Source of the DNA: Candidatus Methylomirabilis limnetica
GTDB lineage: Bacteria > Methylomirabilota > Methylomirabilia > Methylomirabilales > Methylomirabilaceae
Assembly (NCBI RefSeq): GCF_003044035.1
Contig: NZ_NVQC01000022.1
Coordinates: forward strand, 342,092 to 374,091
DNA length: 32,000 bases
Direction of reading: 5' to 3'
Part shown: positions 12,298-31,006 of the stretch, in pieces
Position numbering within the stretch: position 1 is the first letter of the stretch
How the letters are laid out: the number at the start of each line of letters is the position of its first letter
Translations under genes and position numbers: made by a program
The notes under the pieces: model-generated
What the model was told of the DNA's origin: nothing
Databases searched by the model: none
The model's input: only the letters and a program-made list of their open reading frames with translations

Positions 12298-13593
12298 GGC
12301 AGTGTAAATAAATAAAGGTATCAACTTCGCTCTGTAGCTTTTGGTCTTATGACGTAGTTCCAGTCGCCATGAAACTTATTACGTTCCACATTGATGCGCT
12401 TCATCTCTTCATCGCTAACCTTGCGTCCGGTTGGATATTTCCGGCGATCCAATCTACACGTCACTTTCAGCCCCTTCGCCGTGGTCGTCCTGGCGATGAG
12501 ATTGACGATCGTTTCGTAATCCCGCAACGGTTCACCACGCCAATTTGACGTGATAAAGGAAAACAGCCGGTGTTCGATCTTGTTCCATTTGCTGGTGCCG
12601 GGAGGAAAATGACAGACGGAAAGGCACATGCCGGTTTGATCAGCAAACTTCTGCAACTCCAACTTCCAAAGCCGCAACCGCGACCCATTGCTCCCCCCGC
12701 CGTCGGCAGTGATCAGAAGCGTTGCCGTATCCGGATACAGCCGTCGTCCTTCAAAATGCCACCACCCGCGAATCGAGGCCACGGCAAATTCTCCAGTGTC
12801 ATGGTCGGTCCCCACATTGACAAAACCGGCGTTGCGTCCGAGGTCGTAAATACCATACGGATAGGCGCGTGGCACTTCTGGGCTGGGGAAGTCGTGACCT
12901 TGAACTTTTTTGGGCTGCTTTGCCGGAAGCCATTGCTGACCGGCATTGTTGTAGTTGCCGATGAGTTCCTTCTTTTTTGTGTCCACCGAAATCACAGGAA
13001 TGCCTTGCGCCAGGCGTCTCTTTACCGCAGCATTGATGTGCCGAAATTGCGCATCGCGGTCGGGGTGGTCTGTGCCCTCCTCGGTCTTCCGATTGCTCTG
13101 CAGACTATAGTTCAGATCGTGAAGAATCTGCGCGACCTTTGCATGGCTGACCGGGTGCTTGTTCCTGCCAAGCTGCCTGGCAATCGCCCGCGTGCTTTTA
13201 CAAATCCATCGCAGGGGGGACTGTGGATCGCCTCGCGTTTGGCCATCAATCATCTCTTCCAATGCATCCAACAGACGTGGGTCGGAAACGGTGATGGACT
13301 TGCGCCCTGCTCCGGGACAACGGATGCGACCTTCCGATGGCACTATCCCTTCTTGAATTTCGCGGACTCCTTTGGCGATGGCCCGTCGCGACAATCCACA
13401 CGCGCGATGCACCACAGAGATTCCACCAAAGCCCAAACTCACGGCTTCATTAGCAGCCATGATGCGGCGCGTGCGCTCGTCCAAAAGCGGCCACACAGAA
13501 CGAAACTTCCGTCTCAACTCGGGCAGGGTGTTCATGCTCAAGAAGCATACCACCACAACTCATAGATTGATACCTTTATTTATTTACACTGCC
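12298..13593 (-). mobile_element. Intact ISAzo13-family insertion sequence (1296 bp)
   Basis: Perfect 27-bp terminal inverted repeats GGCAGTGTAAATAAATAAAGGTATCAA (12298-12324) and the reverse complement (13567-13593). Flanked by the direct repeat TTA (12295-12297 and 13594-13596). Single full-length transposase ORF. Confidence 0.9.
12321..13556 (-). CDS. ISAzo13-family DDE transposase
   Basis: Characteristic blocks: DPQSPLRW, HPDRDAQFRHIN, PVISVDTKKKELIGNY, PYGIYD, ITADGGGSNGSRLRLWK, HFPPGTSKWNKIEHRLFS, NWRGEPL. The likely true start is ATG 13535 (MNTLPELRRKF). The stop codon lies inside the left IR. Confidence 0.9.
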   Translation of the reverse strand: MVVCFLSMNTLPELRRKFRSVWPLLDERTRRIMAANEAVSLGFGGISVVHRACGLSRRAIAKGVREIQEGIVPSEGRIRCPGAGRKSITVSDPRLLDALEEMIDGQTRGDPQSPLRWICKSTRAIARQLGRNKHPVSHAKVAQILHDLNYSLQSNRKTEEGTDHPDRDAQFRHINAAVKRRLAQGIPVISVDTKKKELIGNYNNAGQQWLPAKQPKKVQGHDFPSPEVPRAYPYGIYDLGRNAGFVNVGTDHDTGEFAVASIRGWWHFEGRRLYPDTATLLITADGGGSNGSRLRLWKLELQKFADQTGMCLSVCHFPPGTSKWNKIEHRLFSFITSNWRGEPLRDYETIVNLIARTTTAKGLKVTCRLDRRKYPTGRKVSDEEMKRINVERNKFHGDWNYVIRPKATERS

Positions 13594-15846: not shown

Positions 15847-16746
15847 TTACTGCAGGTGATTTCTTCGAGCTCTCACCATCCAAGCCATCGCACCCAGGAA
15901 CGCCGCTCCCAACACCATCATTCCCCAGTTACCGACCGTCGGGACCACCGGAATCGTCGTCGTGGTGGTCGTCGTGGTCGTCGTGGTCGTCGTGGTGGTG
16001 GTTACCGTAACGCTGGTGGTATCAGAATCGCCTGTGGCGTTATCAACAAGGCTGCCAGCTGCGACGTCGAAGCCCGCGCCGCCGCCGGATACGTTCAGCG
16101 TCCCTGCGGTGTTCGGGGTGATGAACGAATTCCCATTATAGACAAAGAGGATGCCCTGGTTCAGACTCAAGCTGATCCCGTCGACAGGCTGTGCGGCAGC
16201 ATCAGCAATCGAACACGTGGCGGTTCCCCCAAACCCATACACGCTGTCGCCACAATTCACGTTGTTCGTGATGCTGGCGACAGGGGCGAGCGCGCTGATC
16301 AGTGTCAGGCCGGCATCACCGAATCCAGCCACCGTGGTGGCGCCAGAGGCCCATGACCCGGCACCAGTGGCAGAGAAGGTCACGGCGGGCGTGCAGGCGG
16401 CCAGCGACAGGGTCCCGGTCCGCTTCCCCTGAGCCAGAGCGGTAAGAGGGGTCGCCGGTACCTTGGCAATCAGGGTAGTCCCGCTGCTGACGGTTTGAAC
16501 CACCGTCGCCGCAGAATTGAAGGCGATAGACATTGAGACGTTGGTCAGACGGTCATGATCGGTCCCAGCCGGCTGTGCATCCGAACAGAGGTACTGATAG
16601 ACGGTTCCATCGCTGGCAATGTCGATGCGCTGCTGCACCCGTGCATCGACACTCATCGGGGCGATAACCGTTCCCGCAAGGATCGCGGGGGCCAGCAGAG
16701 ACAGAGCCAACTTCTTGCTGAAAGCAACTCTTGCTCTAGAACTCAT
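15847..16746 (-). CDS. Secreted protein with Thr16 linker and IPTL-CTERM-like exosortase sorting signal
   Basis: AAGGAGGAG SD upstream of ATG 16746. Signal peptide MSSRARVAFSKKLALSLLAPAILAGTVIAPMSVDA. C-terminus ...TVTTTTTTTTTTTTTTTTIPVVPTVGNWGMMVLGAAFLGAMAWMVRARRNHLQ, i.e. motif, TM helix and basic cluster. Confidence 0.8.
   Translation of the reverse strand: MSSRARVAFSKKLALSLLAPAILAGTVIAPMSVDARVQQRIDIASDGTVYQYLCSDAQPAGTDHDRLTNVSMSIAFNSAATVVQTVSSGTTLIAKVPATPLTALAQGKRTGTLSLAACTPAVTFSATGAGSWASGATTVAGFGDAGLTLISALAPVASITNNVNCGDSVYGFGGTATCSIADAAAQPVDGISLSLNQGILFVYNGNSFITPNTAGTLNVSGGGAGFDVAAGSLVDNATGDSDTTSVTVTTTTTTTTTTTTTTTTIPVVPTVGNWGMMVLGAAFLGAMAWMVRARRNHLQ
15955..16002 (-). repeat. Homopolymeric Thr tract (16 consecutive ACG/ACC codons)
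   Basis: The plus strand reads cgtcgtcgtggtggtcgtcgtggtcgtcgtggtcgtcgtggtggtggt. In frame, immediately before the IPVVPTVGNWG sorting motif. Confidence 0.9.
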
Positions 16747-19800: not shown

Positions 19801-19893
19801 GCAAGGCATCTGCGCGTAAACGGCACGTTCTGAAAAGGAGCGGTCATCATATTTGCCGCGAGGAAGTCACGACGGCTGGTCGCTTTTTCCCTG

Positions 19894-20343
19894 TTGCTGC
19901 TACCCATTCTGCTCCAGGGCTGCCTGGGCGGCACCGGGTACCGGGCCTACCCGCGCGCTCGAACCAGTGTCTATACTGACATCTGGAACTTCAGTGACCA
20001 TGAGATTGCCGCTGACCAGGTGGACGTACTCTATCGTCGAGTCGCCCGTCTGATGGCGATCACTCCGAATAATTCCACACCCAGGCCACAGGTGCTGGTG
20101 GTGTCCCCTGCCTACATTCAGGAGAAGTATCTCACTATTCACCCCTTAGCCGCAGCACGGAATGGTACCGCGCTCGCCGTCTACATTCCTCATCAGAACC
20201 AGATCCTGATCCCGGATTTTGACCGCACGCTGCTGACCCATGAGCTGGCTCACTATTTTACCTTCCACTACCTCTCGATCCCCCGATCCGGCTGGGAAGC
20301 GATCGCCGATCAGGTCGTGGATGCTGAAGAGGCGGGAGGCTGA
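19894..20343 (+). CDS. Small HExxH lipoprotein, paralog 1 (5' end probably extends to 19846/19849)
   Basis: The ORF track starts at TTG 19894, which has no SD. The frame is open upstream, and GAAAAGGAGCGG (19831-19842) is followed by ATC ATA (19846-19851). Starting there gives (I)FAARKSRRLVAFSLLLLPILLQGC, a complete lipoprotein signal with lipobox LLQGC. C-terminal THELAHYFTFHY...GWEAIAD motif. Confidence 0.65.
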   Translation: MLLPILLQGCLGGTGYRAYPRARTSVYTDIWNFSDHEIAADQVDVLYRRVARLMAITPNNSTPRPQVLVVSPAYIQEKYLTIHPLAAARNGTALAVYIPHQNQILIPDFDRTLLTHELAHYFTFHYLSIPRSGWEAIADQVVDAEEAGG

Positions 20344-20375: not shown

Positions 20376-20786
20376 CTACGGCGTATAAACAGGAAGCCTG
20401 ACATGGCGGGCCAGCAGATCAAAGTGGTTATCACAGTGAAGAAGACTGCATGAGTAGTGTAAAGCAACAGCAGCGATGAGCTGATCCGTCGCCGGAATGG
20501 ACAAACCCTTACGTCGCAGGGTGTAAGTCATCCGATAGGCCGATCTCCAGACCGATTCCGTAATCGGACATTGCTGGAGCGCCTCCAGGTCTTCGCAGAG
20601 TTCGCGATACTCGCTCTCCGAGCGCGTGCCGCCGACAAGCTCCAGGACGACCATTTCGCACGTGGCCGCGCGCCCCTCACTGAGCAACGCGTGGACTTGT
20701 TGTCTGACAAGAGGATCGCCTGCCGGCCTCAACGCGTGGATCCAAGCCGAGGTATCGATCAGGACCCATCCATCAGCCATCGGCAC
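20376..20786 (-). CDS. vapC: PIN-domain toxin VapC
   Basis: VLIDTSAWIHAL, VVLELVGG, ATDQLIAAVAL and HCDNHFD supply the four acidic PIN positions. Overlaps the antitoxin by 14 nt. Confidence 0.85.
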   Translation of the reverse strand: MPMADGWVLIDTSAWIHALRPAGDPLVRQQVHALLSEGRAATCEMVVLELVGGTRSESEYRELCEDLEALQQCPITESVWRSAYRMTYTLRRKGLSIPATDQLIAAVALHYSCSLLHCDNHFDLLARHVRLPVYTP

Positions 20787-20976
20787 GAAGCCTGGTCAGC
20801 CCTTTTGGGGTGAGCTGAAGAGGGAAACATCCCAGCCTTCCAATCAGACGCTTGACCCGCTGCTGGCGAATAAGCGCCTCCAGAGAGCGATGGATGAGTT
20901 CCTTCTTCGTCTTGGCCTTGCTGAGCGCCTGGGCCTGCTTCATGAGCCTCTCATCAATCTCCAATGTGGTTCTCAT
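20773..20976 (-). CDS. vapB: VapB-type antitoxin (short DUF2191-like)
   Basis: MRTTLEIDERLMKQAQALSKAKTKKELIHRSLEALI... The internal ATG at 20976 has the SD AAAGGAGGA 6 nt upstream, whereas the ORF-track start at 21027 lies inside the promoter. Confidence 0.8.
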   Translation of the reverse strand: MRTTLEIDERLMKQAQALSKAKTKKELIHRSLEALIRQQRVKRLIGRLGCFPLQLTPKGLTRLRADG

Positions 20977-20992
20977 TGAGGGTCCTCCTTTA

Positions 20993-21027
20993 GGCATAAA
21001 AATAGCATAATTTTTATGCCACGACAA
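20993..21027 (-). promoter_or_regulatory. vapBC promoter with palindromic operator
   Basis: Minus strand reads TTGTCG (21027-21022), 17 nt, then TATTTT (21004-20999). An 11-bp perfect inverted repeat, GGCATAAAAAT (20993-21003) and ATTTTTATGCC (21010-21020), overlaps the -10. Confidence 0.5.
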
Positions 21028-21424: not shown

Positions 21425-21557
21425 GAAAGCTGCCCCTCTGTCCTTGATGAGGCGTTGGACAAGTCAGTCAGGCTCCAGCGTCCTGCAGTTGTTTGCTAAC
21501 GTTTTGAAATTGCTGGGCATAATAATGAGTTCGCCAAATGTGTCTTCGAGTACTTGC

Positions 21558-21573
21558 TGGCATGAATCTCGCA
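21558..21573 (+). promoter_or_regulatory. Candidate sigma54 (RpoN) -24/-12 promoter
   Basis: TGGCATGAATCTCGCA compared with the consensus TGGCACGrNNNTTGCW. The GG (21559-60) and GC (21571-72) are at exact consensus spacing. It is identical in the second copy (28927-28942). The predicted start at about 21584 is 11 nt before riboswitch P1. Confidence 0.55.
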
Positions 21574-21594
21574 TTATGTCAGTGGCGTAGAAGG

Positions 21595-21688
21595 TTCCTT
21601 TCCGATAAAGGTAAACCAGTCGTGAGGCTGGGACACAAAGTCGCGGGTCCCAAAAGGGTTGGGACAGCCGGGCTGCCGAAGAAAGGAA
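21595..21688 (+). promoter_or_regulatory. c-di-GMP-I (GEMM-I) riboswitch aptamer
   Basis: P1 is UUCCUUUC (21595-21602) paired with GAAAGGAA (21681-21688). Core: AAAGGUAAACC-AGUC-GUGA-GGCU-GGGACACAAAGUC...GUCCC-aaaaggguu-GGGAC-AGCCGGGCUGCCGAAG. This aligns motif for motif with the Vc2-type consensus GGCAAACC..GNRA..GGGACGCAAAGCC...AGCGGGGUUACCGA. Confidence 0.8.
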
Positions 21689-21741
21689 GAGCGACAATCG
21701 CTCTTTCACGGAAAGTAATCTTCCTGAAAGGAGCGATTGTC

Positions 21742-22239
21742 ATGTTTTCAGCCAAGTCTAAATACTGCCTCGCTGTTCTTCCACTGCTTCTGCTCCCCCT
21801 TCTCCTCCTTCAGGGATGCCTCGGTGGCGTTCAGTATCTCGCCAACCCAGGCCTCCAAACCGGGCTTCACACCGACATCCTCAACTTCAGCGACAGCGAG
21901 ATCGCCCCGGACGCGGTGGACGCACTGTATCTCAAGGTTGCCCGCCTCATGGGCGTCACCCCAGATAGCTCCAAGCCCCGTCCACAGGTGCTCGTCGTTT
22001 CTCCTAACCACATTCATCAAAAGTATCTGATGCTTCGGCCTTCCGCCAAGACACAGAACGGGGTCGCGGTGGCCCTCTATGTCCCCCACGAGAACAGAAT
22101 CCTGATCCCGCATTTTGATCGCGCCCTTTTGACCCATGAGCTGGCTCACTATTTCACGTTCCACTATCTCTCTGCTCCCCGATCTCAGTGGGAAGCAATC
22201 GCGGATAGGGTCGTGGATGCTGAAGAGGCTGGGCATTGA
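21742..22239 (+). CDS. Small HExxH lipoprotein, paralog 2 (intact, riboswitch-controlled)
   Basis: AAAGGAGCG SD, then ATG 21742. MFSAKSKYCLAVLPLLLLPLLLLQGC with a lipobox. C-terminal LLTHELAHYFTFHYLSAPRSQWEAIADRVVDAEEAGH. The ORF-track start at 21538 only translates the riboswitch leader. Confidence 0.75.
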   Translation: MFSAKSKYCLAVLPLLLLPLLLLQGCLGGVQYLANPGLQTGLHTDILNFSDSEIAPDAVDALYLKVARLMGVTPDSSKPRPQVLVVSPNHIHQKYLMLRPSAKTQNGVAVALYVPHENRILIPHFDRALLTHELAHYFTFHYLSAPRSQWEAIADRVVDAEEAGH

Positions 22240-22480
22240 TGCAAGCCACTGAAAATCTCTGCAGGGTGGAATAATGGTGGGAGGGTGGCGGAAGACCAGG
22301 TGGGAGGCTTTCGAATCAATGATAAGATGCGGGGTTCAGGCGTTCATGCCTAACTTGTGGTGATCGAAGCTCCTGTGGGGTATACACTCAGGATGTCCAG
22401 GGACACGAGTCGGTCTGACAGGATCTGATCCACCTCAATCCGTCGCTCACGCGGGACTTAGTCGATCTCCCCACACCTCA

Positions 22481-22918
22481 CTATTCCCCTATCTCGTGGG
22501 GTAGGACCCGGAACCCTTCGCCTTGTGCGGCATCCCGCAGCCGGTGATCAAGACACACAAATTCGCGCCCCTCCGGACGACCCTGAACCCATACAAGCGC
22601 CGAGCCTCACTGAAGAGAGTCCACTGCATGGAGCGGATGAAGCAGGAGCGCCCGCATGGCCTGCTCCCGGACTGCCTGGCTCGGCGCGATCTCTGTCCAG
22701 TCGGCGGCAAGCGCCATGAGGATCGTGCGCGCCTGCGCTTCTGACCGTCTGGACAGGATGCCCTCGCGTCTGAGCCTGGCTAAGGCGGAGCAACACTCGA
22801 TCGGCGTGCCCCACCATGCGGCAATAGCACCATCCTCCTCGGTAAGCCGCATCAGTAAGGGGGTTTGGGGCTCTTCGAGACAGAGTGGGATGATGGCAGA
22901 GGTATCCCAGAACCTCAT
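22481..22918 (-). pseudogene. vapC: vapC (PIN toxin) interrupted by an in-frame TGA at codon 104
   Basis: The ORF stops at 22607-22609 after ...LLHPLHAVDSLQ. The same frame then continues for 41 codons, GSALVWVQGRPEGREFVCLDHRLRDAAQGEGFRVLPHEIGE, to TAG at 22481-22483. That segment is the normal PIN C-terminus and includes the last conserved Asp. Confidence 0.7.
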
Positions 22919-23217
22919 CGCCCCTCTGCCCGTTCTTCCAAGACCGCAGTGATCCCGGCGCCTTGAGGATCAGCGGGGCGCGGCATGTCCCGGAACCCGT
23001 CCGGCAGGTGGAGCGAGCCGATGCGAATGAGCCCGGCGCGGACCATCTCGATCAGGTGGGACGGCAGAAGAGAGTGGTCAGGAGAAAAAGGGATGAGTTT
23101 AGCGATCGGCTTGCCCCGCTCCGTCACAATAATCTCTTCCCCCGCCTTCACCTGGGCGAGGCATGCGCTGAGCGTCGCCTTGAGCTTCGAGACGGCTGTG
23201 CTTTTCGTAATGGACAT
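22915..23217 (-). CDS. Phd/YefM-type antitoxin
   Basis: MSITKSTAVSKLKATLSACLAQVKAGEEIIVTERGKPIAKLIP. Its stop overlaps the vapC start in ATGA (22915-22918). Confidence 0.8.
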   Translation of the reverse strand: MSITKSTAVSKLKATLSACLAQVKAGEEIIVTERGKPIAKLIPFSPDHSLLPSHLIEMVRAGLIRIGSLHLPDGFRDMPRPADPQGAGITAVLEERAEGR

Positions 23218-23239
23218 CCATAGTCACATGTATGCGACT

Positions 23240-23267
23240 GATATAGTCCAATCTTTGACAGAGTCAA
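23240..23267 (-). promoter_or_regulatory. Promoter of the phd-vapC(TGA) operon
   Basis: Minus strand reads TTGACT (23267-23262), 16 nt, then TATATC (23245-23240). A near-palindrome AGTCaCATgtATGcGACT lies between the -10 and the start codon. Confidence 0.5.
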
Positions 23268-23461
23268 GTCCTCCACTTCCCCTCCTGGTTTTTCCAGGTT
23301 TTCCGTGGGCACCCTGACCTTCCAGCATCCCCTCCCCCCACCGAGAGGGAGGGCGCGGGTGGGGGGGTCGTCATTGCCATGCACGATGTCAGCGGATGTC
23401 AAGCACACGCCCATACAGCCCAAGAGCAGCCAGAGGTAACGCTCCGAAACCCTCTGTCACT

Positions 23462-23727
23462 ATATCTCGATCGCACCCTTTTGACCCATGAGCTGGCTCA
23501 CTATTTCACGTTCCACTATGAGCCTGTCCTGCAAACCCTCATGGACCCTTCGACAAGCTCAGGGTGAACGGAATGGGCATTGAAAACATTGACCTTTTTC
23601 CGTTCGTGCTGAGCCTGTCGAAGCATGAACAGGGGTTTGCTGGACAGGCTCCTATCTGCCTGCTCCCCGATCCCAGTGGGAAGTCATCGCCGATAAGGTC
23701 GTCGATGCTGAAGAGTCTGCAAGTTGA
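23462..23727 (+). pseudogene. HExxH lipoprotein paralog 4: 3' fragment split by a MITE
   Basis: LDRTLLTHELAHYFTFHY is followed by a 132-bp insertion, then LPAPRSQWEVIADKVVDAEES. No 5' half, SD or start codon is present. Confidence 0.75.
23520..23651. mobile_element. MITE (132 bp) inserted in the lipoprotein gene fragment
   Basis: 19-bp TIRs with one mismatch: GAGCCTGTCCtGCAAACCC and GGGTTTGCtGGACAGGCTC. Flanking CTAT duplication at 23516-23519 and 23652-23655. Intact paralogs read ...CACTATCT... at this site, with a single CTAT. Confidence 0.75.
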
Positions 23728-23979
23728 GAACGAGAAAAGCTCGGACAAGTTCTTCTGAGATGTCTCGAGTGATCGTGGCGAGATGACGCTCCAGGTTTGT
23801 GCAAACAGCAAGTTATAAGTCTGATTTACACAACTTGGGCGTGGCATGGTACAGACTAAACAATGCGGGGCAGAGCCTGCTATTCCGGCGGGTGGCGTCT
23901 TGACTCACTCAACTCGTAGGATGATCACAAGTCCTTTATTACGGGGAGCACGACACCGGGCTATAATATCGCGACCGTT

Positions 23980-24399
23980 TTATTGATGAACGATCGTAAC
24001 ACCCGCCGCTTCCGCCGCCGTGATGAGACGGCGGTCCAGGGTTGCAAGGGCCAGACCCCTCCGCTCAGCCAGTTCCAGGTAAGCAGCATCATAGGCAGAC
24101 AAGGTGAACCCTTCCGCGAGGCGAGCGAAGCGCCATACCGCATCCGGGTTCAGGTGTACATCGGTCCGAATGGGGAGCATGCCGTAGAGTTCAGCTAAGC
24201 GCATAGCATCAGCCTCAGACAACCTATGTCGGCGTTGCGCAACAGTGACGGCGTTGGCGAGTTCATACCACCACAACGCGGGGACCCACAGAACAGTCTC
24301 CGGAGTAAGCTGGGCGAAGAATCGATCGGCCCGTCTTGACGTCTCATCAGGAAGCCCCCAGGCCAGCGCCATGGAACAGTCGAGTACCGAGTCCATCAA
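23980..24399 (-). CDS. vapC: PIN-domain toxin VapC
   Basis: VLDCSMALAW, WWYELANAV, SAYDAAYLELA, LATLDRRL. Confidence 0.85.
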   Translation of the reverse strand: MMDSVLDCSMALAWGLPDETSRRADRFFAQLTPETVLWVPALWWYELANAVTVAQRRHRLSEADAMRLAELYGMLPIRTDVHLNPDAVWRFARLAEGFTLSAYDAAYLELAERRGLALATLDRRLITAAEAAGVTIVHQ

Positions 24400-24650
24400 G
24401 CGCGGCGGCCCTCCTCGATCAACTCACGAACCTTCAGTACGCCAGGGACCCGCTGACGGATCTCACGGAAGGAGGTCAAGAGCTTGGGCAGATCCAGCAA
24501 CTCCTCCTCTCTCGTGGGAGGAACTAAATGTGCTACCACCTTCCCACGCCGTCGGATGACAAAAGATCTTCCGCGTTCCGTCTCGCGCAGCAACTCGGAA
24601 AGATGGGTTTTTGCCTGAAACGCGCTAACCTCAGTGACCTCACTCGCCAT
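24396..24650 (-). CDS. Phd/YefM-type antitoxin
   Basis: MASEVTEVSAFQAKTHLSELLRETERGRSFVIRRRGKVVAHLVP. ATG 24650 is preceded by GAGGAGG with a 6-nt gap. The ORF-track start at 24668 provides that SD, so it is probably not the start. ATGA overlap with vapC. Confidence 0.8.
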   Translation of the reverse strand: MASEVTEVSAFQAKTHLSELLRETERGRSFVIRRRGKVVAHLVPPTREEELLDLPKLLTSFREIRQRVPGVLKVRELIEEGRRA

Positions 24651-24672
24651 AGAGCACCTCCTCGCCATCTAT

Positions 24673-24708
24673 TTAAACTAGTTTAATCAACTAGTAGGAT
24701 AATCGCAA
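24673..24708 (-). promoter_or_regulatory. Promoter and operator of the phd-vapC operon
   Basis: Minus strand reads TTGCGA (24708-24703), 17 nt, then TAAACT (24685-24680). A perfect 14-bp palindrome TTAAACTAGTTTAA (24673-24686) covers the -10. Confidence 0.5.
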
Positions 24709-24775
24709 GCCTTTTATTTGGCTACACTGAACCACTGCAAAGCTGTGCCCCCTCATCCGCGTCCAAAGTGTCTTA

Positions 24776-25143
24776 GTAACTACTCAGGTAGATAGGCTGA
24801 AGGCTGAAGGCTTTTAGGGGTAAGTCATGCGTGATCATACAAAACTCCGAAAAGGTCTTGAATCTACTGGGGGTTCATTCCCCGCAGCGTGCCGCGAGTG
24901 CGTCATACCGGTGAAAGCCGGTATCCAGAGGGCCAGACTGGATTCCCCCGTATCAAGTACGGGGCATGCGTGTCAAGCACCTGTCTGCGTGCGGAGACGC
25001 ACAGGCAGGCGGAATGACGGGCCAGAACAGGAGACGATACCCAGCAGCTTGCTGCGGGGTAGTTCATTGGCTCGATTCGCGCCTTGCGAGATAATTTAGA
25101 ACCTTCAGTCTTCAGCCTTCAGTCTAAACACCTGAGTAGTTAC
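24776..25143. mobile_element. Composite MITE: outer element with 14-bp TIRs carrying a nested MITE (24871-25067)
   Basis: Outer TIRs GTAACTACTCAGGT (24776-24789) and ACCTGAGTAGTTAC (25130-25143), with subterminal (CTGAAGG)n repeats. The 8-bp flanks are GTGTCTTA (24768-24775) and GTGTCCTA (25144-25151). The inner element is the inverted homolog of 17031-17197. Confidence 0.65.
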
Positions 25144-25326
25144 GTGTCCTATTACGGGGAGCATAAAATAGATTGCACTATCGCACAACATCTCCAGCAA
25201 CTTCCCCCTTTGCTAAATGCTACATGGAACATCTACGATCGCTGTGTCCTATGGCATCGTGGGTTCCCCCATTGTCTGACCTGATCCAGGTCGTCGCGTT
25301 ACTATCGTCTACAACGGGAGGAAGAC

Positions 25327-25602
25327 ATGACTAAGACCGAACTCGCAGAACAGATGGCCCAGGATACCGGTATCAGCAAGGCCATCGCTGAAACCGCACT
25401 TCGTAGCTGTATCGACCGCATCACCAACAGCTTAAAGAATGGGCAGGAGGTGGCAATCGTGGGATTCGGGACCTTCAGCGTGGCGAGTCGAGCTGCCCGG
25501 ACCGGTCGCAATCCGCAAACCGGAGAGCCGATCACGATCAAGGCGTCTCGGGTGCCACGCTTCAAGCCGGGGAAGACCCTGAAGGATGCGGTGAACAGCT
25601 AA
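25327..25602 (+). CDS. hup: HU-family DNA-binding protein
   Basis: MTKTELAEQMAQDTGISKAIAETAL...VAIVGFGTFSVASRAARTGRNPQTGEPITIKASRVPRFKPGKTLKDAVN. GGGAGGAAG SD. Confidence 0.9.
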   Translation: MTKTELAEQMAQDTGISKAIAETALRSCIDRITNSLKNGQEVAIVGFGTFSVASRAARTGRNPQTGEPITIKASRVPRFKPGKTLKDAVNS

Positions 25603-25685
25603 AGGGCATCCCGGGAGCGTTTCGGGAAGTGGCGATCCGTCCGGCCAGCCTGCTCGCCTCCTCTTGAGTTGTGAGGCTTCACAAG

Positions 25686-26060
25686 TTAGGGTTCTTCGTC
25701 CAGTCCCAGGAGATCGAGAAACTCCAAATGACGAAGGACCTTCTCGGCCACCTCGCGACGCAGCTGGCGGTCCGTTAAGCGGCCACAGAGGCGGTGGATG
25801 CGATGGGCGGCGATCGTTCGGATCTGGTGCGGCAGGAGAATCGAATCCAGAGGGTTTCCAGCAGCTCCCGCCGGAAGGAACACCTCAAAAGGGTGCGGCT
25901 GGCGATCCGGCTTGAGCGAGGTGACAGGAAGGACGGTCAGAAGACCAGAGGCACTGTTGAAGGCCTCATTGCTGATCACAAGTACCGGTCGGAGGAAGCC
26001 CTGCTCATGACCGAGGGGGTGCCCCAGGTCCGCTTCCAGCACGGCCCATCGTCGCCGCAT
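25686..26060 (-). CDS. mazF: MazF/PemK-family toxin (endoribonuclease)
   Basis: MRRRWAVLEADLGHPLGHEQGFLRPVLVISNEAFN...LTVLPVTS...DSILLPHQIRTIAAHRI. ATG 26060 lies 5 nt after the antitoxin stop. The longer ORF-track N-terminus overlaps the antitoxin and is unlikely. Confidence 0.8.
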   Translation of the reverse strand: MRRRWAVLEADLGHPLGHEQGFLRPVLVISNEAFNSASGLLTVLPVTSLKPDRQPHPFEVFLPAGAAGNPLDSILLPHQIRTIAAHRIHRLCGRLTDRQLRREVAEKVLRHLEFLDLLGLDEEP

Positions 26061-26065
26061 CGCGG

Positions 26066-26350
26066 TTACACGATCTGTGCGGCGGTCTCGGCATCCGCCC
26101 GGGCGAAGTCCTCGGCGATCGCATCCTGCTCGGTTCGATAGCAAGGATCACTAAAGGCCGCCTGATACTGTCTGAAGGCCTCGGCTTCACGCTGATGTTG
26201 CTGATGGCGCCGGCGAGCCTGCTCCACGAGTCGTTCGATGAGTGCAGCCTTGCTCGGAGCTACACCGTCTTTGACAAGTTCATCGATGCTCTCAACAGTT
26301 GGCTGGTGAAGACGAAAGGTCATTCGTTTGGCGATAATAGGCATATTCAT
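26066..26350 (-). CDS. Ribbon-helix-helix (CopG/MazE-like) antitoxin
   Basis: RMTFRLHQPTVESIDELVKDGVAPSKAALIERLVEQ is an RHH fold signature. AGGAGGGC SD. Sits upstream of mazF. Confidence 0.7.
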   Translation of the reverse strand: MNMPIIAKRMTFRLHQPTVESIDELVKDGVAPSKAALIERLVEQARRRHQQHQREAEAFRQYQAAFSDPCYRTEQDAIAEDFARADAETAAQIV

Positions 26351-26364
26351 GCCCTCCTGCTACC

Positions 26365-26392
26365 AATATAGCACGCTATGAAGGCGTGTCAA
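26365..26392 (-). promoter_or_regulatory. Promoter of the RHH-mazF operon
   Basis: Minus strand reads TTGACA (26392-26387), 16 nt, then TATATT (26370-26365). Confidence 0.55.
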
Positions 26393-26811
26393 GAGTGAAC
26401 GTCATCCCAAAAACAGAGATAGCCATTGCTGAGATACCGCTGTACGCCAATCACCGCCATTTTATGACCCTGTAACCGGTATGCTCAGCCTGGGATGAGG
26501 ATCATGGCTGAGGTTCGCCCGCTCTTCCGGCCTCCTGCGGTCCGCATGCCCTGCTCTGAGGCAGACGCCTCCCATTACGTCATGCGCTGCCCCTCCTCTC
26601 GCTCCCTGGGAGCGTCAGGTCGCCCCCGTCATCGCCCAGCACCGGTGACGGACGCCACGCAAGAGAGCGAGCCGCTCAGCCTCGACCACGAGCCTCAGCA
26701 CCACCTGCCCGAGGCCGTGGAAGCCGGTCTGCCCTGTCTCAGAGTCAGCCAGTCACCCACCGTGTCAGCCTAAAGGCCGAGGCTTTACGCGTCGGAGGGG
26801 TAAGTTTTACA

Positions 26812-27030
26812 AACTGAGCGATGCAGTTCCTTCTCGTGCTTCGACGCATCAGCCAATCCCTCACCCCTCTTCAGTCCAGCCTTCTTCTCGCAACTCGTTG
26901 AGACGAAAGCCTCCGTCACCATCCCCAGTCGGACGACCGGCCCCCTGACATCCATGGTACAGCAATTGCGTAGCTTTCCACCGGCGCACCTCACACCTGC
27001 GTGATGAGCAACGATCGATGACATCTCTCC
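26812..27030. repeat. Conserved non-coding module X, copy B (5'-truncated)
   Basis: Aligns to 28486-28690 and to 21200-21380. Confidence 0.7.
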
Positions 27031-27045
27031 CCCCCCCCATCCCTA

Positions 27046-27137
27046 CCTTCCCCCACCAGGGGGGAAGGAGTGTCAGTTCTCCTCCCCCCATCGTGGGGGA
27101 GGGTGTGTAAGCTCTCCTCCCCCCGTCGCGGGGGAGG
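27046..27137. repeat. Cluster of three GC hairpin repeats (CCTCCCCC-n5/6-GGGGGAGG type)
   Basis: CCTTCCCCC-acca-GGGGGAAGG, CCTCCCCC-catcgt-GGGGGAGG, CCTCCCCCC-gtcgc-GGGGGAGG. The same units occur at 28691-28752, and a related one at about 23327-23370. Confidence 0.6.
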
Positions 27138-27193
27138 ATGAAGGTGGGGGGGATGTTCCGAGCACCGTCACCTTCTAGAAAGGAGCGGTCGTC

Positions 27194-27515
27194 ATCGTCG
27201 CATCCCGCAGGTCACGATCTCTGGTCGCTCTTCACCTGATTCCGCTCCCCGTTCTGCTCCAGGGGTGCCTCGGTAGCGTTCAGTATCTGGCCAGCCCAGG
27301 GGTTCGGACGGGGCTCCACGCCGACATCCTCAACTTCAGCAACCGCGAGATCGCCCCCGAGAAGGTGGACCCAGACCCTGATCCCATATTTCGATCGCAC
27401 CCTTTTGACCCATGAGCTGGCGCACTATTTCACGTTCCACTATCTGTCTGCTCCCCGATCCCAGTGGGAAGCCATAGCGGATAGGGTCGTGGATGCTGAA
27501 GGGTCTGGGCATTGA
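27194..27515 (+). pseudogene. HExxH lipoprotein paralog 3: ATG replaced by ATC, ~200-nt internal deletion causing a frameshift
   Basis: GGAGCGGTCGTC-ATC stands where paralog 2 has GGAGCGATTGTC-ATG. The lipobox LLQGC is retained. Homology jumps at 27370/27371 from ...EKVD to the ...PDPIF region, out of frame. The downstream THELAHYFTFHY-coding sequence is present but not in frame. Confidence 0.75.
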
Positions 27516-27705
27516 TGCAAGCCACTGAAAACCTCTGCGGGATGGAACGGTGGGAGGGTGGCCGAAGATCAGGTGGGCGGCTTTCGAATCAATGACAACG
27601 CGCAAGCGTTCGGGCTGTTCGCTCTGGTATGCAGTTCTCTCGGGTGTGTGCAGGCGAACTCAGGGCATAAGGATCGTGGTGCGTCACGTAAAGATTACGG
27701 TATGA

Positions 27706-27954
27706 CTATCTGTAGATTTCTCGCCGGTGCCCAATGCGGAGGATGAACACCTCGTCCTCGGCGATGTCGTACCGTATGCGATAGGGACCAACTCGCAGGC
27801 GCCATTGGCCGACATGAACTTCCCGGAGCTTCTGGCCCCGGTAGGGATTCTCTTTCAGCGCCTCAATGGCTTCCAATATGCGGCGATGCATTGAAGCATC
27901 GAGCCGGGCGAGGACCTTTCGGACCTCAGGGTGGTAGCGGATCTCGTAGGGCAT
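27706..27954 (-). CDS. RelE/ParE-family toxin
   Basis: MPYEIRYHPEVRKVLARLDASMHRRILEAIEALKENPYRGQKLR...WRLRVGPYRIRYDIAEDEVFILRIGHRREIY. Confidence 0.85.
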   Translation of the reverse strand: MPYEIRYHPEVRKVLARLDASMHRRILEAIEALKENPYRGQKLREVHVGQWRLRVGPYRIRYDIAEDEVFILRIGHRREIYR

Positions 27955-27958
27955 CAGC

Positions 27959-28297
27959 CTAACGGACTACCTTGGCAGCTTGTGGTCTAGCCTTCGCTTC
28001 CTTATTGATAAGGTCCCGCCACATGTCTTCGTCGCGAATATACCGTCCGGCCTCGATCTCTTTTCTGGCCTGCTTGAGGCTCTTCTGGTATTCAGAATCA
28101 AGCTGCTCAAGAGCGGTCTGCGCAAGATCGTCGAGGTCTTCATAATCCTGGATGCTGAGGAGCACGGCTGTCGGGATTCCCGCTTTCTTGATCACGAAGC
28201 GATCACGTTGATTGGCGACGCGACTCAGGATTTCTCCGAGGTGCTGGCGTACCGCTAGCGCCGATATTTCTTTTAAAGCGGTCAGTGTTTTTGCCAT
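27959..28297 (-). CDS. Phd/YefM-type antitoxin
   Basis: LTALKEISALAVRQHLGEILSRVANQRDRFVIKKAGIPTAVLLSIQDYEDL. TAGGAGGA SD. Ends 4 nt before the toxin start. Confidence 0.8.
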   Translation of the reverse strand: MAKTLTALKEISALAVRQHLGEILSRVANQRDRFVIKKAGIPTAVLLSIQDYEDLDDLAQTALEQLDSEYQKSLKQARKEIEAGRYIRDEDMWRDLINKEAKARPQAAKVVR

Positions 28298-28332
28298 ACG
28301 TCCTCCTATGTGTTTAATGGTGATATAGTACT

Positions 28333-28360
28333 ATGCTAGCATGTAGGACACCGATGTCAA
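28333..28360 (-). promoter_or_regulatory. Promoter and operator of the phd-relE/parE operon
   Basis: Minus strand reads TTGACA (28360-28355), 16 nt, then TAGCAT (28338-28333). Palindromes ATGCTAGCAT and TAGTACTA overlap or follow the -10. Confidence 0.5.
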
Positions 28361-28765
28361 GGGAACAACCGTATCCCTCAGCACGCCCTTCTGATCGTAG
28401 AGACGCGGAACGCCTTCAATGGGCCCCCTTCCGACAACGTCCTGAAAGCATAACTGGCGCGCGGACGACGAGTAATTTGTTCGCTCGGGCGATGTAGTTC
28501 CTTCTCGTGCTTCGGCGCATCAGCCGATCCCTCAGTCCTGTTCAGTCCAGCCTTCTTCTCACAACTCGTTGATACGAAAGCCTCTGTCGCCATCCCCAGT
28601 CGGACGACCGCCCCCCGACATCCCTGGTACAGCGCTTGCGTAAGCTTCCACCGGTACGCCTGACACAACTACGCGATGAGCAACGATCAATGACATCTCT
28701 CCTTCCCCCACAAGGGGGGAAGGAGTTTAAGTTCTCCTCCCCCCATCGTGGGGGAGACACCCATT
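28360..28765. repeat. Conserved non-coding module X, copy C (plus GC hairpin repeats 28691-28752)
   Basis: Full-length homolog of 21083-21424. Carries an 11-nt insertion near its 5' end and the hairpin repeat block before the terminator. Confidence 0.7.
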
Positions 28766-28788
28766 GTCACTTCTGTGACATTTTTTTT
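28766..28788 (+). terminator. Candidate intrinsic terminator at the 3' end of module X (plus strand)
   Basis: GTCAC-ttct-GTGAC followed by A plus T8 (28781-28788). Copy A keeps the T7 run (21407-21413) but has a degenerate stem. Confidence 0.45.
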
Positions 28789-28926
28789 CACCTCAAGTCT
28801 GCCCGCTTTTCCTTGAGGAGGCATCAGGTCGTCCAGTCAGTCTGCAGCTATCGGCGGTGATTTTCTAACTTATTGAAAACACAGGGCACACAAATGAGTT
28901 CGCCAAATGTGTCTTCGAGTACTTGC

Positions 28927-28942
28927 TGGCATGAATCTCGCA
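28927..28942 (+). promoter_or_regulatory. Candidate sigma54 (RpoN) -24/-12 promoter, second copy
   Basis: TGGCATGAATCTCGCA, identical to 21558-21573. The flanking sequence is conserved. Confidence 0.55.
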
Positions 28943-28963
28943 CTATGTCAGTGGCGTAGAAGG

Positions 28964-29057
28964 TTCCTTTCCGATAAAGGCAAACCAGTCGTAAGGCTGG
29001 GACGCAACGCCGCGGATCCCAAATGGGTTGGGACAGCCGGGCTACCGAAGAAAGGAA
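28964..29057 (+). promoter_or_regulatory. c-di-GMP-I (GEMM-I) riboswitch aptamer, second copy
   Basis: UUCCUUUC...AAAGGCAAACC-AGUC-GUAA-GGCU-GGGACGCAACGCC...AUCCC-aaauggguu-GGGAC-AGCCGGGCUACCGAAG-GAAAGGAA. The GNRA loop changes GUGA to GUAA relative to copy 1. Confidence 0.8.
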
Positions 29058-29110
29058 GAGCGACACCCGCTCTTTCACGGAAAGCAATCTTCCTGAGAGG
29101 AGCGGTTGTC

Positions 29111-31006
29111 ATGTTTTCAGTCCAGTCGAAATCCTGCCTCAATGTTCTTCCCCTGGCTCTGCTTCGGGTCGCGTTCACCCTAGCCCTCGCGTTTGTCTTT
29201 ACTGGAGTCGTTGGAACTTACGCCGAGGCTGCCACCAGGTTGCCGGACCTCATCGTCTCGGCCGTCAGCGCCCCGTCGACAGCCCAGCCTGGGCAGAGTT
29301 TCGTTCTCTCCGCGTCGATCAAGAATCAGGGTAGGGCCTCTGCTAGCACGGTTCAGGCGGCGTTTTACCTGACGAAGAGCGCTTCAAGCATCACTGGAGC
29401 GACTCTGTTGGGTACTCAGAATGTGGGTTCCCTCTCAGCGGGGGCTGTCCTGGCCCTCACCACAACCCTCTCCATCCCTTCCTCGACTTCGCCGGGAACG
29501 TTCTATGTGGCGACGGTGGCGGATCCAACAAAGATAATAAAAGAGAGCAAAGAAACGAATAACACCCGCGCCTCCAGCGCCATCGCCGTCAAGGACTTAA
29601 CCCCACCTACGATTAGCGGCGTGAATGCTACTGGAATAACTGCCAACAATGCCACCATCACCTGGACGACAGATAAGACGAGCACCTCGCAGGCAGACTA
29701 TGGAACCACCGCTGCCTACGGCAGCGCGACAGCGCCCAACAGTTCCCTTGTGACAAGCCACGCCGTCACATTGAGTGGGTTGACCGCAGGCAAGGCATAT
29801 CACTTCCGAGCACAGTCCAAGGATGCCGCCGGGAATGCGGCGCTATCGAGTGACTATACATTCACAACTGCAACCGCTACGACTACAACTGCAACCGCAG
29901 GAAATACCTACTACGTCGCCACCACCGGCAACGACGGCTACCCCGGCACCGAGACTCAGCCCTTCCGCACGCTCTCACGCGGCGTCAGTGTGCTGATCCC
30001 AGGGGATACGCTCTATGTCATGAGCGGGACCTATGCGGAGTCGCTCATGCACAACATTCCCGCCGGTACCTCCTGGAGTGCTCCGATAACGGTAGCTGCC
30101 GCTCCAGGTCACACCGTGACCCTCAAGCCCGATCTCGGAGCTGAGTTTGTCCTGCACTTCCAGGGCCCCCAGCAGTACATCGTCATCGATGGGCTGATCC
30201 TCGACGGGGCCAATGCCACCTACGGCGTCGTGAAAATTACCTGGTCGGTGTCAGGTGATCCGACGACAGCAGCCCACCATATCCGGCTTCAAAATAGTGA
30301 AGTACGTAACGCCTCGGCACTGGGGGGGCAGGCTTCCGGACAAGGGGTGCTGGTGGCGGGACAGGCCGACTGGAATGAATTCATCAACCTCAACGTCCAT
30401 CATAATGGTCTAACCTCTTTTGACCACGGCTTCTACATCCAGTCCAGTCACAATGTAGTGGAACACTGCTCAGTCCACGACAACGCAGGCTACGGCGTAC
30501 ATCTCTACAATGAGTACGGTCGGCGAACTGACAGCAATGTTGTGAGAAACAATGCGGTCTTCAACAACGGCTGGCGAGGAATCCTCCTCGGTTCAGGCGA
30601 TGGGAACATCGCGTACAATAATGTTGTTTGGGGTAATAGGGGAGGCATCCGCGTCAGCTTTGGTAACCCCACGAACAGTAAGGTCTACAACAATACAACA
30701 TACAACAACACGGACTACGGCATCTTAGTGGAGACTGGTACCGGAGCTATAGCGCAGAACAACATTGCATACATGAATGGCACTCCAGAGATTCAGGATA
30801 CCGCGACCAGCTCCGTCATTGGCCACAATCTCGTAGGCATCGACCCGCAGTTCGTCAATGCGGCAGCGGCCGATTTTCGCCTCCAACCAGGTAGTCTGGC
30901 GATTGATGCCGGCATTGCCGTCAGCCTAGTGACTACGGACATTGCGGGTACTCTGCGCCCGCAGGGGAGAGGCGACGATATTGGGGCCTTTGAGATGATC
31001 CCCTGA
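29111..31006 (+). CDS. Secreted CARDB - fibronectin type III - right-handed beta-helix protein (riboswitch-controlled)
   Basis: GAGAGGAGCGG SD, then ATG 29111. Signal peptide MFSVQSKSCLNVLPLALLRVAFTLALAFVFTGVVGTYAEA|A. CARDB-like PDLIVSAVSAPSTAQPGQSFVLSASIKNQG. FN3-like PPTISGVNATGITANNATITWTTDKTSTSQADYG...YHFRAQSKDAAGN. Parallel beta-helix repeats NNAVFNNGWRGILLGSGDGNIAYNNVVWGNRGGIRVS...YNNTTYNNTDYGILVE. Confidence 0.8.
   Translation: MFSVQSKSCLNVLPLALLRVAFTLALAFVFTGVVGTYAEAATRLPDLIVSAVSAPSTAQPGQSFVLSASIKNQGRASASTVQAAFYLTKSASSITGATLLGTQNVGSLSAGAVLALTTTLSIPSSTSPGTFYVATVADPTKIIKESKETNNTRASSAIAVKDLTPPTISGVNATGITANNATITWTTDKTSTSQADYGTTAAYGSATAPNSSLVTSHAVTLSGLTAGKAYHFRAQSKDAAGNAALSSDYTFTTATATTTTATAGNTYYVATTGNDGYPGTETQPFRTLSRGVSVLIPGDTLYVMSGTYAESLMHNIPAGTSWSAPITVAAAPGHTVTLKPDLGAEFVLHFQGPQQYIVIDGLILDGANATYGVVKITWSVSGDPTTAAHHIRLQNSEVRNASALGGQASGQGVLVAGQADWNEFINLNVHHNGLTSFDHGFYIQSSHNVVEHCSVHDNAGYGVHLYNEYGRRTDSNVVRNNAVFNNGWRGILLGSGDGNIAYNNVVWGNRGGIRVSFGNPTNSKVYNNTTYNNTDYGILVETGTGAIAQNNIAYMNGTPEIQDTATSSVIGHNLVGIDPQFVNAAAADFRLQPGSLAIDAGIAVSLVTTDIAGTLRPQGRGDDIGAFEMIP

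Follow-up and report, generated by a model that had tools for sequence, protein, structure and literature searches.

A c-di-GMP-I riboswitch in two copies, with a candidate translational off-switch platform, in Candidatus Methylomirabilis limnetica

A 32,000-nt stretch of the genome of Candidatus Methylomirabilis limnetica (GCF_003044035.1, contig NZ_NVQC01000022.1, positions 342,092-374,091, read on the forward strand and called the window below) contains two copies of a c-di-GMP-I (cyclic dimeric guanosine monophosphate, class I) riboswitch, each upstream of a gene for a predicted exported protein. In both copies, computation and comparison place the Shine-Dalgarno (SD) sequence in a helix that is coupled to the aptamer stem P1 through mutually exclusive pairings. 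We read the element as a kinetically controlled translational off switch that c-di-GMP would close; judging from the folding models, the probability that this reading is right is about 0.6. The RNA is an ordinary, well-built member of a known riboswitch class, and knowledge of the class is unchanged by it. Its contribution is to give the Methylomirabilota (NC10) a regulon under a c-di-GMP riboswitch; a full-text literature search found no paper on a Methylomirabilis riboswitch.

The comparison rests on 16 full-length leaders, namely the two window copies and 14 complete orthologous leaders from Methylomirabilota/NC10 and related metagenome contigs, retrieved in a protein-guided manner (L004-L008, L018, L019, L021, L023, L027, and two each from L022 and L025); two more leaders, L003 and L028, are partial. 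Covariation was counted in an alignment of 13 leaders (A4), ensembles with an enforced helix were computed for 15, and unconstrained minimum free energy (MFE) structures for nine. All 16 leaders have one layout, in which a sigma-54-type promoter is followed in turn by aptamer, platform, SD and start codon, and the complete orthologous leaders keep the start codon at the same distance from the aptamer. The gene in P0059/L026 adjoins a DnaJ gene and has no leader.

The expression platform and its two folds

At gathering thresholds, cmscan finds exactly two RNAs in the window, and both are assigned to RF03167 (c-di-GMP-I-GGC, gathering score 59). An earlier note on this stretch had recognized a c-di-GMP-I aptamer in each place, and the covariance model bears this out, with both copies above the gathering score. 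The unconstrained MFE structures of the nine leaders fall into two recurrent, mutually exclusive forms. In state A, an extended P1 (UUCCUUUC:GAAAGGAA plus CG:CG) coexists with an anti-SD:SD helix, which encloses a GGAAAG/CUUCC hairpin, and the SD is paired. In state B, GAAGGUU.CUUUCCG (21590-604) pairs with CGGAAAG.AAUCUUC (21709-23) to form an alternative to P1 (alt-P1), which encloses P2, P3 and an extended hairpin at 21685-707, and the SD is free. State B is the unconstrained MFE structure in 5 of the 9 leaders, and also the RNAalifold consensus of the 13-leader alignment. The elements are as follows.

21601-21681, + strand: c-di-GMP-I aptamer, copy 1 (cmscan, RF03167, 69.8 bits, E = 9e-15)
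28970-29050, + strand: c-di-GMP-I aptamer, copy 2 (cmscan, RF03167, 62.6 bits)
21590-21594, + strand: GAAGG, 5'-terminal purine block, unpaired in state A, pairing with CUUC(C) 21720-21723 in state B
21595-21604, + strand: UUCCUUUCCG, 5' strand of extended P1 and also of alt-P1; perfect 8-nt repeat (I3) with 21681-21688
21677-21688, + strand: CG-aa-GAAAGGAA, 3' strand of P1; its last four bases, GGAA 21685-88, are common to extended hairpin 1
21685-21707, + strand: GGAAGAGCGA-caa-UCGCUCUUUC, extended hairpin 1 (anti-sequestrator); repeat I4, MFE element of state B and choice of RNAalifold
21693-21707, + strand: GACAAUCGCUC plus UUUC, anti-SD strand; perfect 11-bp complement of 21731-21741
21709-21723, + strand: CGGAAAG-u-AAUCUUC, 3' strand of alt-P1, pairing with 21590-21604; repeat I1, RNAalifold consensus
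21726-21741, + strand: GAAAGGAGCGAUUGUC, SD region (SD GGAG, 21730-21733); 3' strand of the sequestering helix
29054-29110, + strand: platform of copy 2 (hairpin 1, 29054-29076; anti-SD, 29062-29076; alt-P1 3' strand, 29078-29092; SD strand, 29095-29110)

The leader is thus assembled from four purine blocks (GAAGG 21590-94, GAAAGGAA 21681-88, GGAAAG 21710-15 and the SD block GAAAGGAG 21726-33) and three pyrimidine blocks (UUCCUUUC 21595-602, UCUUUC 21702-07 and UCUUCC 21719-24), with a GAGCG / CGCUC / GAGCG triplet in addition. The first of these, GAAGG, is the exact onset of sequence conservation among the leaders. Each block has a defined partner per state, which makes the platform unusually legible; it would be a good model for kinetic translational riboswitches.

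The sequestering helix is the element on which the earlier note had dwelt, and its coordinates proved exact: GACAATCGCTC (21693-21703) is perfectly complementary to GAGCGATTGTC (21731-21741), and the helix ends at C21741, the base before the start codon (ATG, 21742-21744), with three of the four bases of GGAG paired and G21730 bulged. Beyond this bulge, the helix of copy 1 is lengthened by UUUC:GAAA. The local hairpin GAGCGA-caa-TCGCTC, proposed at the same time, is also there and extends to AAGAGCGA/TCGCTCTT; in this extended form it and P1 compete for 21685-88, as it and the SD do for 21698-21707. An unbiased scan for inverted repeats recovers P1 (I3), the SD helix (I2; 21 nt, 81%), the local hairpin (I4) and AGGAAGA/TCTTCCT (I7), and adds the long repeat I1, 21590-21610 with 21703-21723, which had not been listed before. 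The 5' strand of P1 is moreover perfectly complementary (UCCUUUC 21596-21602) to GAAAGGA 21726-21732 (I5), and further minor pairings are possible. In state A the region 21709-23 instead forms a small hairpin 2, GGAAAG 21710-15 with CUUCC 21720-24.

The platform is more structured than chance would give: the segment 21689-21747 folds with -26.9 kcal/mol, against -11.0 +/- 2.8 for shuffled sequences (z = -5.6, none of 200 as good), and for the whole 171-nt leader z is -4.9. Sequence changes among the 13 aligned leaders follow the same helices. In the SD helix, 21698:21736 is C-G in 11 leaders, U-A in one and unpaired in one, and 21694:21740 is A-U in eight, G-U in two, G-C in two and unpaired in one, so that two pairs of the core have changed on both sides; several other changes are G-U transitions. 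The inserted C of L021, L022b and L025b pairs with the G21730 that is bulged in copy 1. Between the two window copies (offset +7369), T21698 is replaced by C and A21736 by G, which is the compensatory U-A to C-G change that had been noticed earlier, and A21697->C is the mismatch added beside it; the 5' strand thereby reads AAT in copy 1 but ACC in copy 2, and the 3' strand has A in the former and G in the latter. Since every other leader with the same short hairpin loop has C-G at 21698:21736, it is copy 1 that carries a recent double change. Hairpin 1 is 84.6% paired, its closing pair being A-U, G-C or a mismatch. The 14 pairs of alt-P1 are 98.9% paired; 21596:21717 is U-A in 11 leaders, U-G in one and C-G in one, and 21594:21719 is G-C in seven and G-U in six. 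In L027, U21596->C is matched by A->G at 21717 and, in the register preferred by RNAfold, by A->G in the 3' strand of P1, and both alternative partners of position 21596 seem to compensate for the change. The SD helix is very probably functional.

Translational control is the best reading of such a leader, because a terminator search found no plus-strand terminator in it; aptamer identity, SD helix and compensatory change are all confirmed, the orthologues add further evidence for them, and the earlier proposal of a translational switch is supported. Hairpin 1 followed by UUUC was considered as a transcription terminator and rejected, as it gives no hit on the plus strand and its U-tract is missing in orthologues (CUCCAAC in L005-L007 and L019). 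The sole terminator-like hit near the leader lies on the minus strand, at 21705-21687, and consists of the reverse complement of hairpin 1 followed by a T-rich stretch; no minus-strand gene is seen to converge there.

Folding order, direction of switching and competing explanations

In the window copies the two states are nearly isoenergetic. The ensemble free energies of copies 1 and 2 are -67.2 and -64.3 kcal/mol in state A and -66.7 and -65.5 kcal/mol in state B, that is, a difference with the helix enforced of -0.5 kcal/mol in copy 1 and +1.2 kcal/mol in copy 2, where state B is the MFE structure; in 10 of 15 leaders they lie within about 2.3 kcal/mol of each other. What separates the two states is the SD. 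When P1 is enforced, the probability that the SD is unpaired is 0.00-0.16 in all 15 leaders (0.13 in copy 1), and when alt-P1 is enforced it is 0.08-0.83, mostly 0.3-0.5.

Stepwise folding of four successively longer transcripts, ending after P1, after hairpin 1, at 21725 and at the start codon, gives one series in 13 of 13 leaders: P1 alone, then P1 with a short hairpin 1, then state B once 21709-21724 is present, and state A only on adding the SD strand. At the switch to state B the energy of copy 1 drops from -45.6 to -59.9 kcal/mol. The gain from adding 21689-21725 is -23.3 kcal/mol in copy 1 and -22.5 kcal/mol in copy 2, against about -8 +/- 2.3 for dinucleotide shuffles (for copy 1, mean -8.1 +/- 2.3, with none of 400 shuffles as good). 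The order P1, B, A is the signature of a kinetic switch; the direction of switching, which the earlier note had left open, can therefore be inferred from the folding models, and c-di-GMP would turn translation off.

In the mechanism that we propose, the leader would be transcribed from the sigma-54-type promoter and the riboswitch would control the initiation of translation. P1 would fold first during transcription. If no ligand is bound, the appearance of 21709-21724 would at once trigger refolding into state B, at a point where the SD has yet to be transcribed: the P1 5' strand would move to 21709-21723, the freed GGAA would extend hairpin 1 (21685-94 with 21698-707), the anti-SD strand would be locked, and the SD, once made, would stay single-stranded. 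The RNA would be trapped in this open, ON form, as an escape from B to A would need the breaking of two helices, of 14 and 10 bp, whose topology crosses that of the SD helix. If c-di-GMP is bound, P1 (21595-604 with 21677-88) would be locked and the weak hairpin 1 of 5-6 bp would stand alone, to be displaced by the emerging SD strand; 21693-21707 would then pair with 21726-21741, burying the SD in state A, the OFF form. The conservation of GAAGG 21590-94, which is partnerless in state A, counts for the reality of state B.

Several observations weigh against this reading. The alignments are shallow, with 13-16 leaders of 85-88% mean identity and gene conversion within genomes, and platform covariation rests on a small number of independent changes, owing to the close relationship of the leaders and to homogenization of copies within a genome. 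The two window copies themselves are about 94% identical from roughly 21522, promoter included, through codon 17, a sign of concerted evolution, and they are not independent of each other. Alt-P1 has a single pair with changes in both strands, and only about half of the leaders can lengthen the SD helix by UUUC:GAAA. The SD is just about 30-50% unpaired in the model even with alt-P1 enforced. In the clade of L021, L022 and L025, equilibrium energies favour state A by 3-10 kcal/mol, and the ON state would therefore have to be purely kinetic there. The loss of P1 is not special by itself, as 40-58% of shuffled platforms likewise disrupt P1 in silico, and nearest-neighbour energies leave out both the ligand and the tertiary contacts of the aptamer.

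The energetics of that clade, together with the fact that the full-length MFE structure is state A in most leaders, would also suit a constitutive SD helix, formed with or without ligand and serving low basal translation or stabilization of the mRNA, while the output would run through Rho-dependent termination, RNase access or RNA stability; the Vc2 riboswitch of Vibrio cholerae is reported to act through RNA stability too (bioRxiv 10.1101/617340). We consider this unlikely. It leaves unexplained the conservation of GAAGG 21590-94 and CGGAAAG.AAUCUUC 21709-23 and their complementarity to the 5' strand of P1, as well as the exact four-base overlap of hairpin 1 with P1, and the leader has no terminator.

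A translational ON switch, in which the ligand frees the SD, would have a precedent in the class I switch Vc1 of V. cholerae (PMC4744006), and the I5 complementarity of UCCUUUC to GAAAGGA would allow a free 5' strand of P1 to mask the SD. It is nevertheless quite improbable here, since enforcing P1, our proxy for the ligand-bound form, leaves the SD paired in every one of the 15 leaders (unpaired probability at most 0.16), and in the P1-formed state only a 5-6-bp hairpin competes with the 11-16-bp anti-SD:SD helix.

Equally doubtful is a variant of the off switch in which the competitor of P1 is not alt-P1 with extended hairpin 1, and the 3' strand of P1 pairs with the downstream pyrimidines. 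The earlier note had suggested this as GGAAGA 21685-90 with UCUUCC 21719-24. The inverted repeat does exist, indeed as a perfect 7-nt one (I7, AGGAAGA 21684-90 with UCUUCCU 21719-25) that is 91% paired across the 13 leaders. As a competitor of P1 it was rejected on energy cost and lack of covariation: enforcing it gives -57.4 and -56.6 kcal/mol in copies 1 and 2, which is 9-10 kcal/mol above states A and B, its covariation is no better than that of shuffles (263 of 500 as good), neither MFE folding nor RNAalifold ever picks it, and it offers no reason why GAAGG 21590-94 should be conserved. It is more likely that UCUUC pairs with GAAGG 21590-94, within the 14-bp alternative to P1.

The off switch that we favour can be set against three described riboswitches. 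Vc2, upstream of tfoY in V. cholerae, is of the same aptamer class, with the same contacts G20, A47 and C92 and a GNRA tetraloop on P2, and is reported as an off-switch (bioRxiv 10.1101/617340; PMC4744006). The present RNA differs in belonging to NC10/Methylomirabilota and not to Gammaproteobacteria, in its regulated genes, in its sigma-54-type promoter, and in a platform of P1, alt-P1, anti-sequestrator and anti-SD that is not described for Vc2. In Clostridioides difficile, a class I riboswitch represses zmpI, which encodes the zinc metalloprotease PPEP-1, and high c-di-GMP suppresses the release and remodelling of surface material (PMC6366702). The likeness lies in a class I riboswitch before a gene for a secreted, here putative, zinc metalloprotease, and in negative regulation, here deduced from folding. 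However, the C. difficile class I switches studied mostly terminate transcription, whereas there is no terminator here, and the peptidase of the window is an unrelated, uncharacterised 165-aa lipoprotein with a putative peptidase function. The off reading suits the biology, as the putative matrix-modifying enzymes downstream of our riboswitches would plausibly be silenced at high c-di-GMP. Vc1, upstream of gbpA in V. cholerae, shares the aptamer class and post-transcriptional control of a secreted or surface protein (PMC4744006), but it is an ON switch, whereas folding here hides the SD in the P1-formed state.

The aptamers and their ligand pocket

The secondary structure and contact nucleotides of the aptamers, taken from the Rfam model alignment, are as follows; the Vc2 numbers in brackets are what we take to be the equivalent positions, by way of the Rfam model and the Vc2 sequence.

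21611-21636, + strand: P2 of copy 1, loop GUGA (GNRA)
21639-21674, + strand: P3 of copy 1
21610, 21637 and 21676, + strand: ligand contacts of copy 1, G (G20), A (A47) and C (C92)
28979, 29006 and 29045, + strand: ligand contacts of copy 2, G (G20), A (A47) and C (C92)

The fold is well preserved. The P2 loops across the leaders are GUGA, GUAA, GCGA, GCAA and GAGA, all of them GNRA; the interhelical pair C21634-G21667, equivalent to C44-G83, is invariant in 13 of 13 leaders; P1 is 98.5% paired; pairs changed on both sides number 5 of 6 in P2 and 3 of 10 in P3; and the covariation score of the aptamer is reached by none of 500 shuffles. The 14 orthologous aptamers score 60-76 bits, all above the Rfam threshold, and RF03167 is the top-scoring model for all 16. 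Two further matches, to other families of the clan (Rfam CL00126), score lower and are left out of the report at gathering thresholds. A hammerhead HH10 match was dismissed as noise, its 15.5 bits lying below the gathering score of 75.

Positions 20, 47 and 92 are ligand contacts, and cGAMP (cyclic GMP-AMP)-sensing relatives have G20A (PMC4744006, PMC5888326, PMC6140456). The name GGC, judging from the model consensus and the naming convention, would stand for these three positions; the main text of Weinberg et al. 2017 does not mention a definition of the variant. The consensus of RF03167 has G at model position 37, the equivalent of A47, and both window copies deviate from it, reading GAC(A/G)C-A-AAG. 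In fact, all 16 full-length leaders have A at this position (GACGCAAAGCC; in copy 1, GACACAAAGUC), so that the G of the variant is found in none of them even though RF03167 scores best for all. The equivalent of position 20 is G in 15 of the 16, including both window copies, and C92 is kept. With the equivalents of A47, G20 and C92 in place, the pocket is the canonical c-di-GMP one and the GGC label a scoring artefact; the higher score of RF03167 must stem from other features in common. The plain name c-di-GMP-I given in the earlier note is thus the right one, and both copies are almost certainly ordinary c-di-GMP-I-type aptamers, whose ligand, to judge by the contact nucleotides, is presumably c-di-GMP. 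The ranking of RF03167 over the parent c-di-GMP-I model has a practical side, since automatic annotation would mislabel the whole NC10 group as an orphan variant.

A different ligand, either 3',3'-cGAMP or that of the GGC variant class, is barely credible: although the best model is RF03167 and one orthologue (L008) has A in place of G20, like cGAMP-sensing GEMM-Ib RNAs (PMC6140456), the contact nucleotides just described argue against it, and for the window copies G20 and A47 led us to reject both specificities. The GEMM-Ib 3',3'-cGAMP riboswitches of Geobacter have the same fold and often precede genes for extracellular or surface proteins, but they are defined by A20 (PMC6140456), where the window copies have G. 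The L008 aptamer (L008:166-245) is the sole orthologue with A there (GAUAAAAGC; AAAAGC), the signature of cGAMP-sensing or bispecific GEMM-Ib RNAs; its P1 is shortened, and with 59.9 bits it is barely over threshold.

In a third group of paralogous genes (proteins starting MTSA... or MSLAK...), nhmmer found aptamer-like upstream sequence at L011:389-518, L013:1007-1137, L014:1007-1137 and L024:592-670. It keeps GGGACGCAACGCC and P3, P2 is broken, the 5' strand of P1 is gone, and no Rfam family matches at E <= 0.1. These are probably decayed riboswitches, and because of the broken P2 and the lack of an Rfam match they were excluded from the covariation analysis. In L024 the aptamer-like sequence directly adjoins the SD.

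Promoter, regulated genes and neighbourhood

21558-21572, + strand: sigma-54-type -24/-12 promoter element of copy 1, TGGCATgaatcTCGC (motif TGGCAC-N5-TTGC)
28927-28941, + strand: sigma-54-type promoter element of copy 2 (motif match)
21742-22239, + strand: regulated gene 1, 165-aa lipoprotein with lipobox LLQGC and HELAH motif (HExxH), putative zinc metallopeptidase
29111-31006, + strand: regulated gene 2, 631-aa secreted protein with CARDB, fn3 and right-handed beta-helix (Pel9A/NosD-like) domains

The pattern TGGCAYN5TYGC occurs twice in the window, both times at a riboswitch, where 0.41 occurrences are expected by chance. All 16 leaders carry TGGCAY-N5-TYGC at a distance of 15-23 nt (mode 17) upstream of GAAGG, whereas the intervening and flanking sequence diverges. 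The motif, with its -24 GG and -12 GC elements at exact spacing, has all the marks of a sigma-54-type promoter feeding both riboswitch transcripts, with a predicted transcription start near 21584. To our knowledge, no c-di-GMP riboswitch has been described behind a sigma-54 promoter. The window encodes no enhancer-binding protein. FleQ and VpsR are enhancer-binding proteins that respond to c-di-GMP; if the one acting here did so as well, the result would be a two-layer feed-forward loop, in which transcription and translation read one messenger with opposite or reinforcing sign.

The lipoprotein has 62 homologues, nearly all of them metagenomic, the named ones being from 'candidate division NC10' and 'Candidatus Methylomirabilota'. 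The HELAH motif is invariant, and so are several residues beside it. A Pfam search with the lipoprotein gave no match. Its AlphaFold2 model (mean predicted local distance difference test, pLDDT, 83.8) has weak Foldseek matches in the PDB to the zincin domains of collagenase, M1 peptidase and YbeY (best E = 3e-3, template modelling score about 0.4), and the model is compatible with a minimal zincin fold. In L025 and L022, the lipoprotein and beta-helix genes are adjacent, each with its own riboswitch, for which reason we regard the pair as a conserved small regulon. The riboswitches tie the messenger to these two uncharacterised secreted proteins in an exosortase/exopolysaccharide locus, and this is a lead to their role, for example in matrix turnover or dispersal.

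Leader copies within a genome are more alike than orthologues between genomes, as in 21522-21790 versus 28891-29159 of the window and L025:90-340 versus L025:980-1240, and the likeness takes in the first 17 or so codons of two otherwise unrelated proteins. This points to concerted evolution, by gene conversion, of a cassette of promoter, riboswitch and signal peptide. One may go further and imagine a lineage-specific NC10 cassette, made of the sigma-54 promoter, the aptamer, a platform that plays "musical chairs" and the first ~17 codons, which gene conversion would keep identical before two secreted enzymes that remodel an exopolysaccharide or collagen-like matrix, the riboswitch being strictly co-transcriptional; as a whole, this picture is a tentative one and has the odds against it.

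A paralogue of the lipoprotein (19894-20343, + strand, 69% identity) lies 1.4 kb upstream and lacks an aptamer. Of the SD block, its leader (~19830-19860) retains no more than a relic (CTGAAAAGGAGCGGTCATCATA, with ATA in place of ATG), and the same relic is seen in L009 and L023.

The neighbourhood has the look of an exopolysaccharide locus, with glycosyltransferases of families GT2 and GT4, an exosortase fragment, IPTL-CTERM, PA14 and collagen-repeat proteins, a radical SAM (S-adenosylmethionine) enzyme and an insertion sequence (IS) element. In particular, a collagen-triple-helix repeat protein (1549-2718), an exosortase (EpsH) fragment (4973-5485) and a protein with an IPTL-CTERM sorting signal (15847-16746) are on the minus strand, coordinates as listed. 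The collagen-like protein deserves mention in view of the weak resemblance between the lipoprotein under riboswitch control and the peptidase domains of collagenases.

A type II toxin-antitoxin island of 6.7 kb (22240-28900), with no open reading frame longer than 152 aa, separates the two riboswitch genes. Since the riboswitch genes are adjacent in L025 and L022, this island looks inserted. Its recognizable members are:

22915-23217, 24396-24668 and 27959-28297: Phd/YefM
23980-24399: PIN
25686-26144: MazF, with a ribbon-helix-helix (RHH) protein at 26066-26350
27706-27954: ParE

A further PIN/VapB pair is found at ~20376-21000. Mobile elements are represented by an intact DDE transposase of the ISAZ013 family (12321-13556, - strand), situated inside the glycosyltransferase/PA14 cluster, and by a transposase fragment (UPF0236 / ISL3-like; 31220-31963, - strand) at the end of the window.

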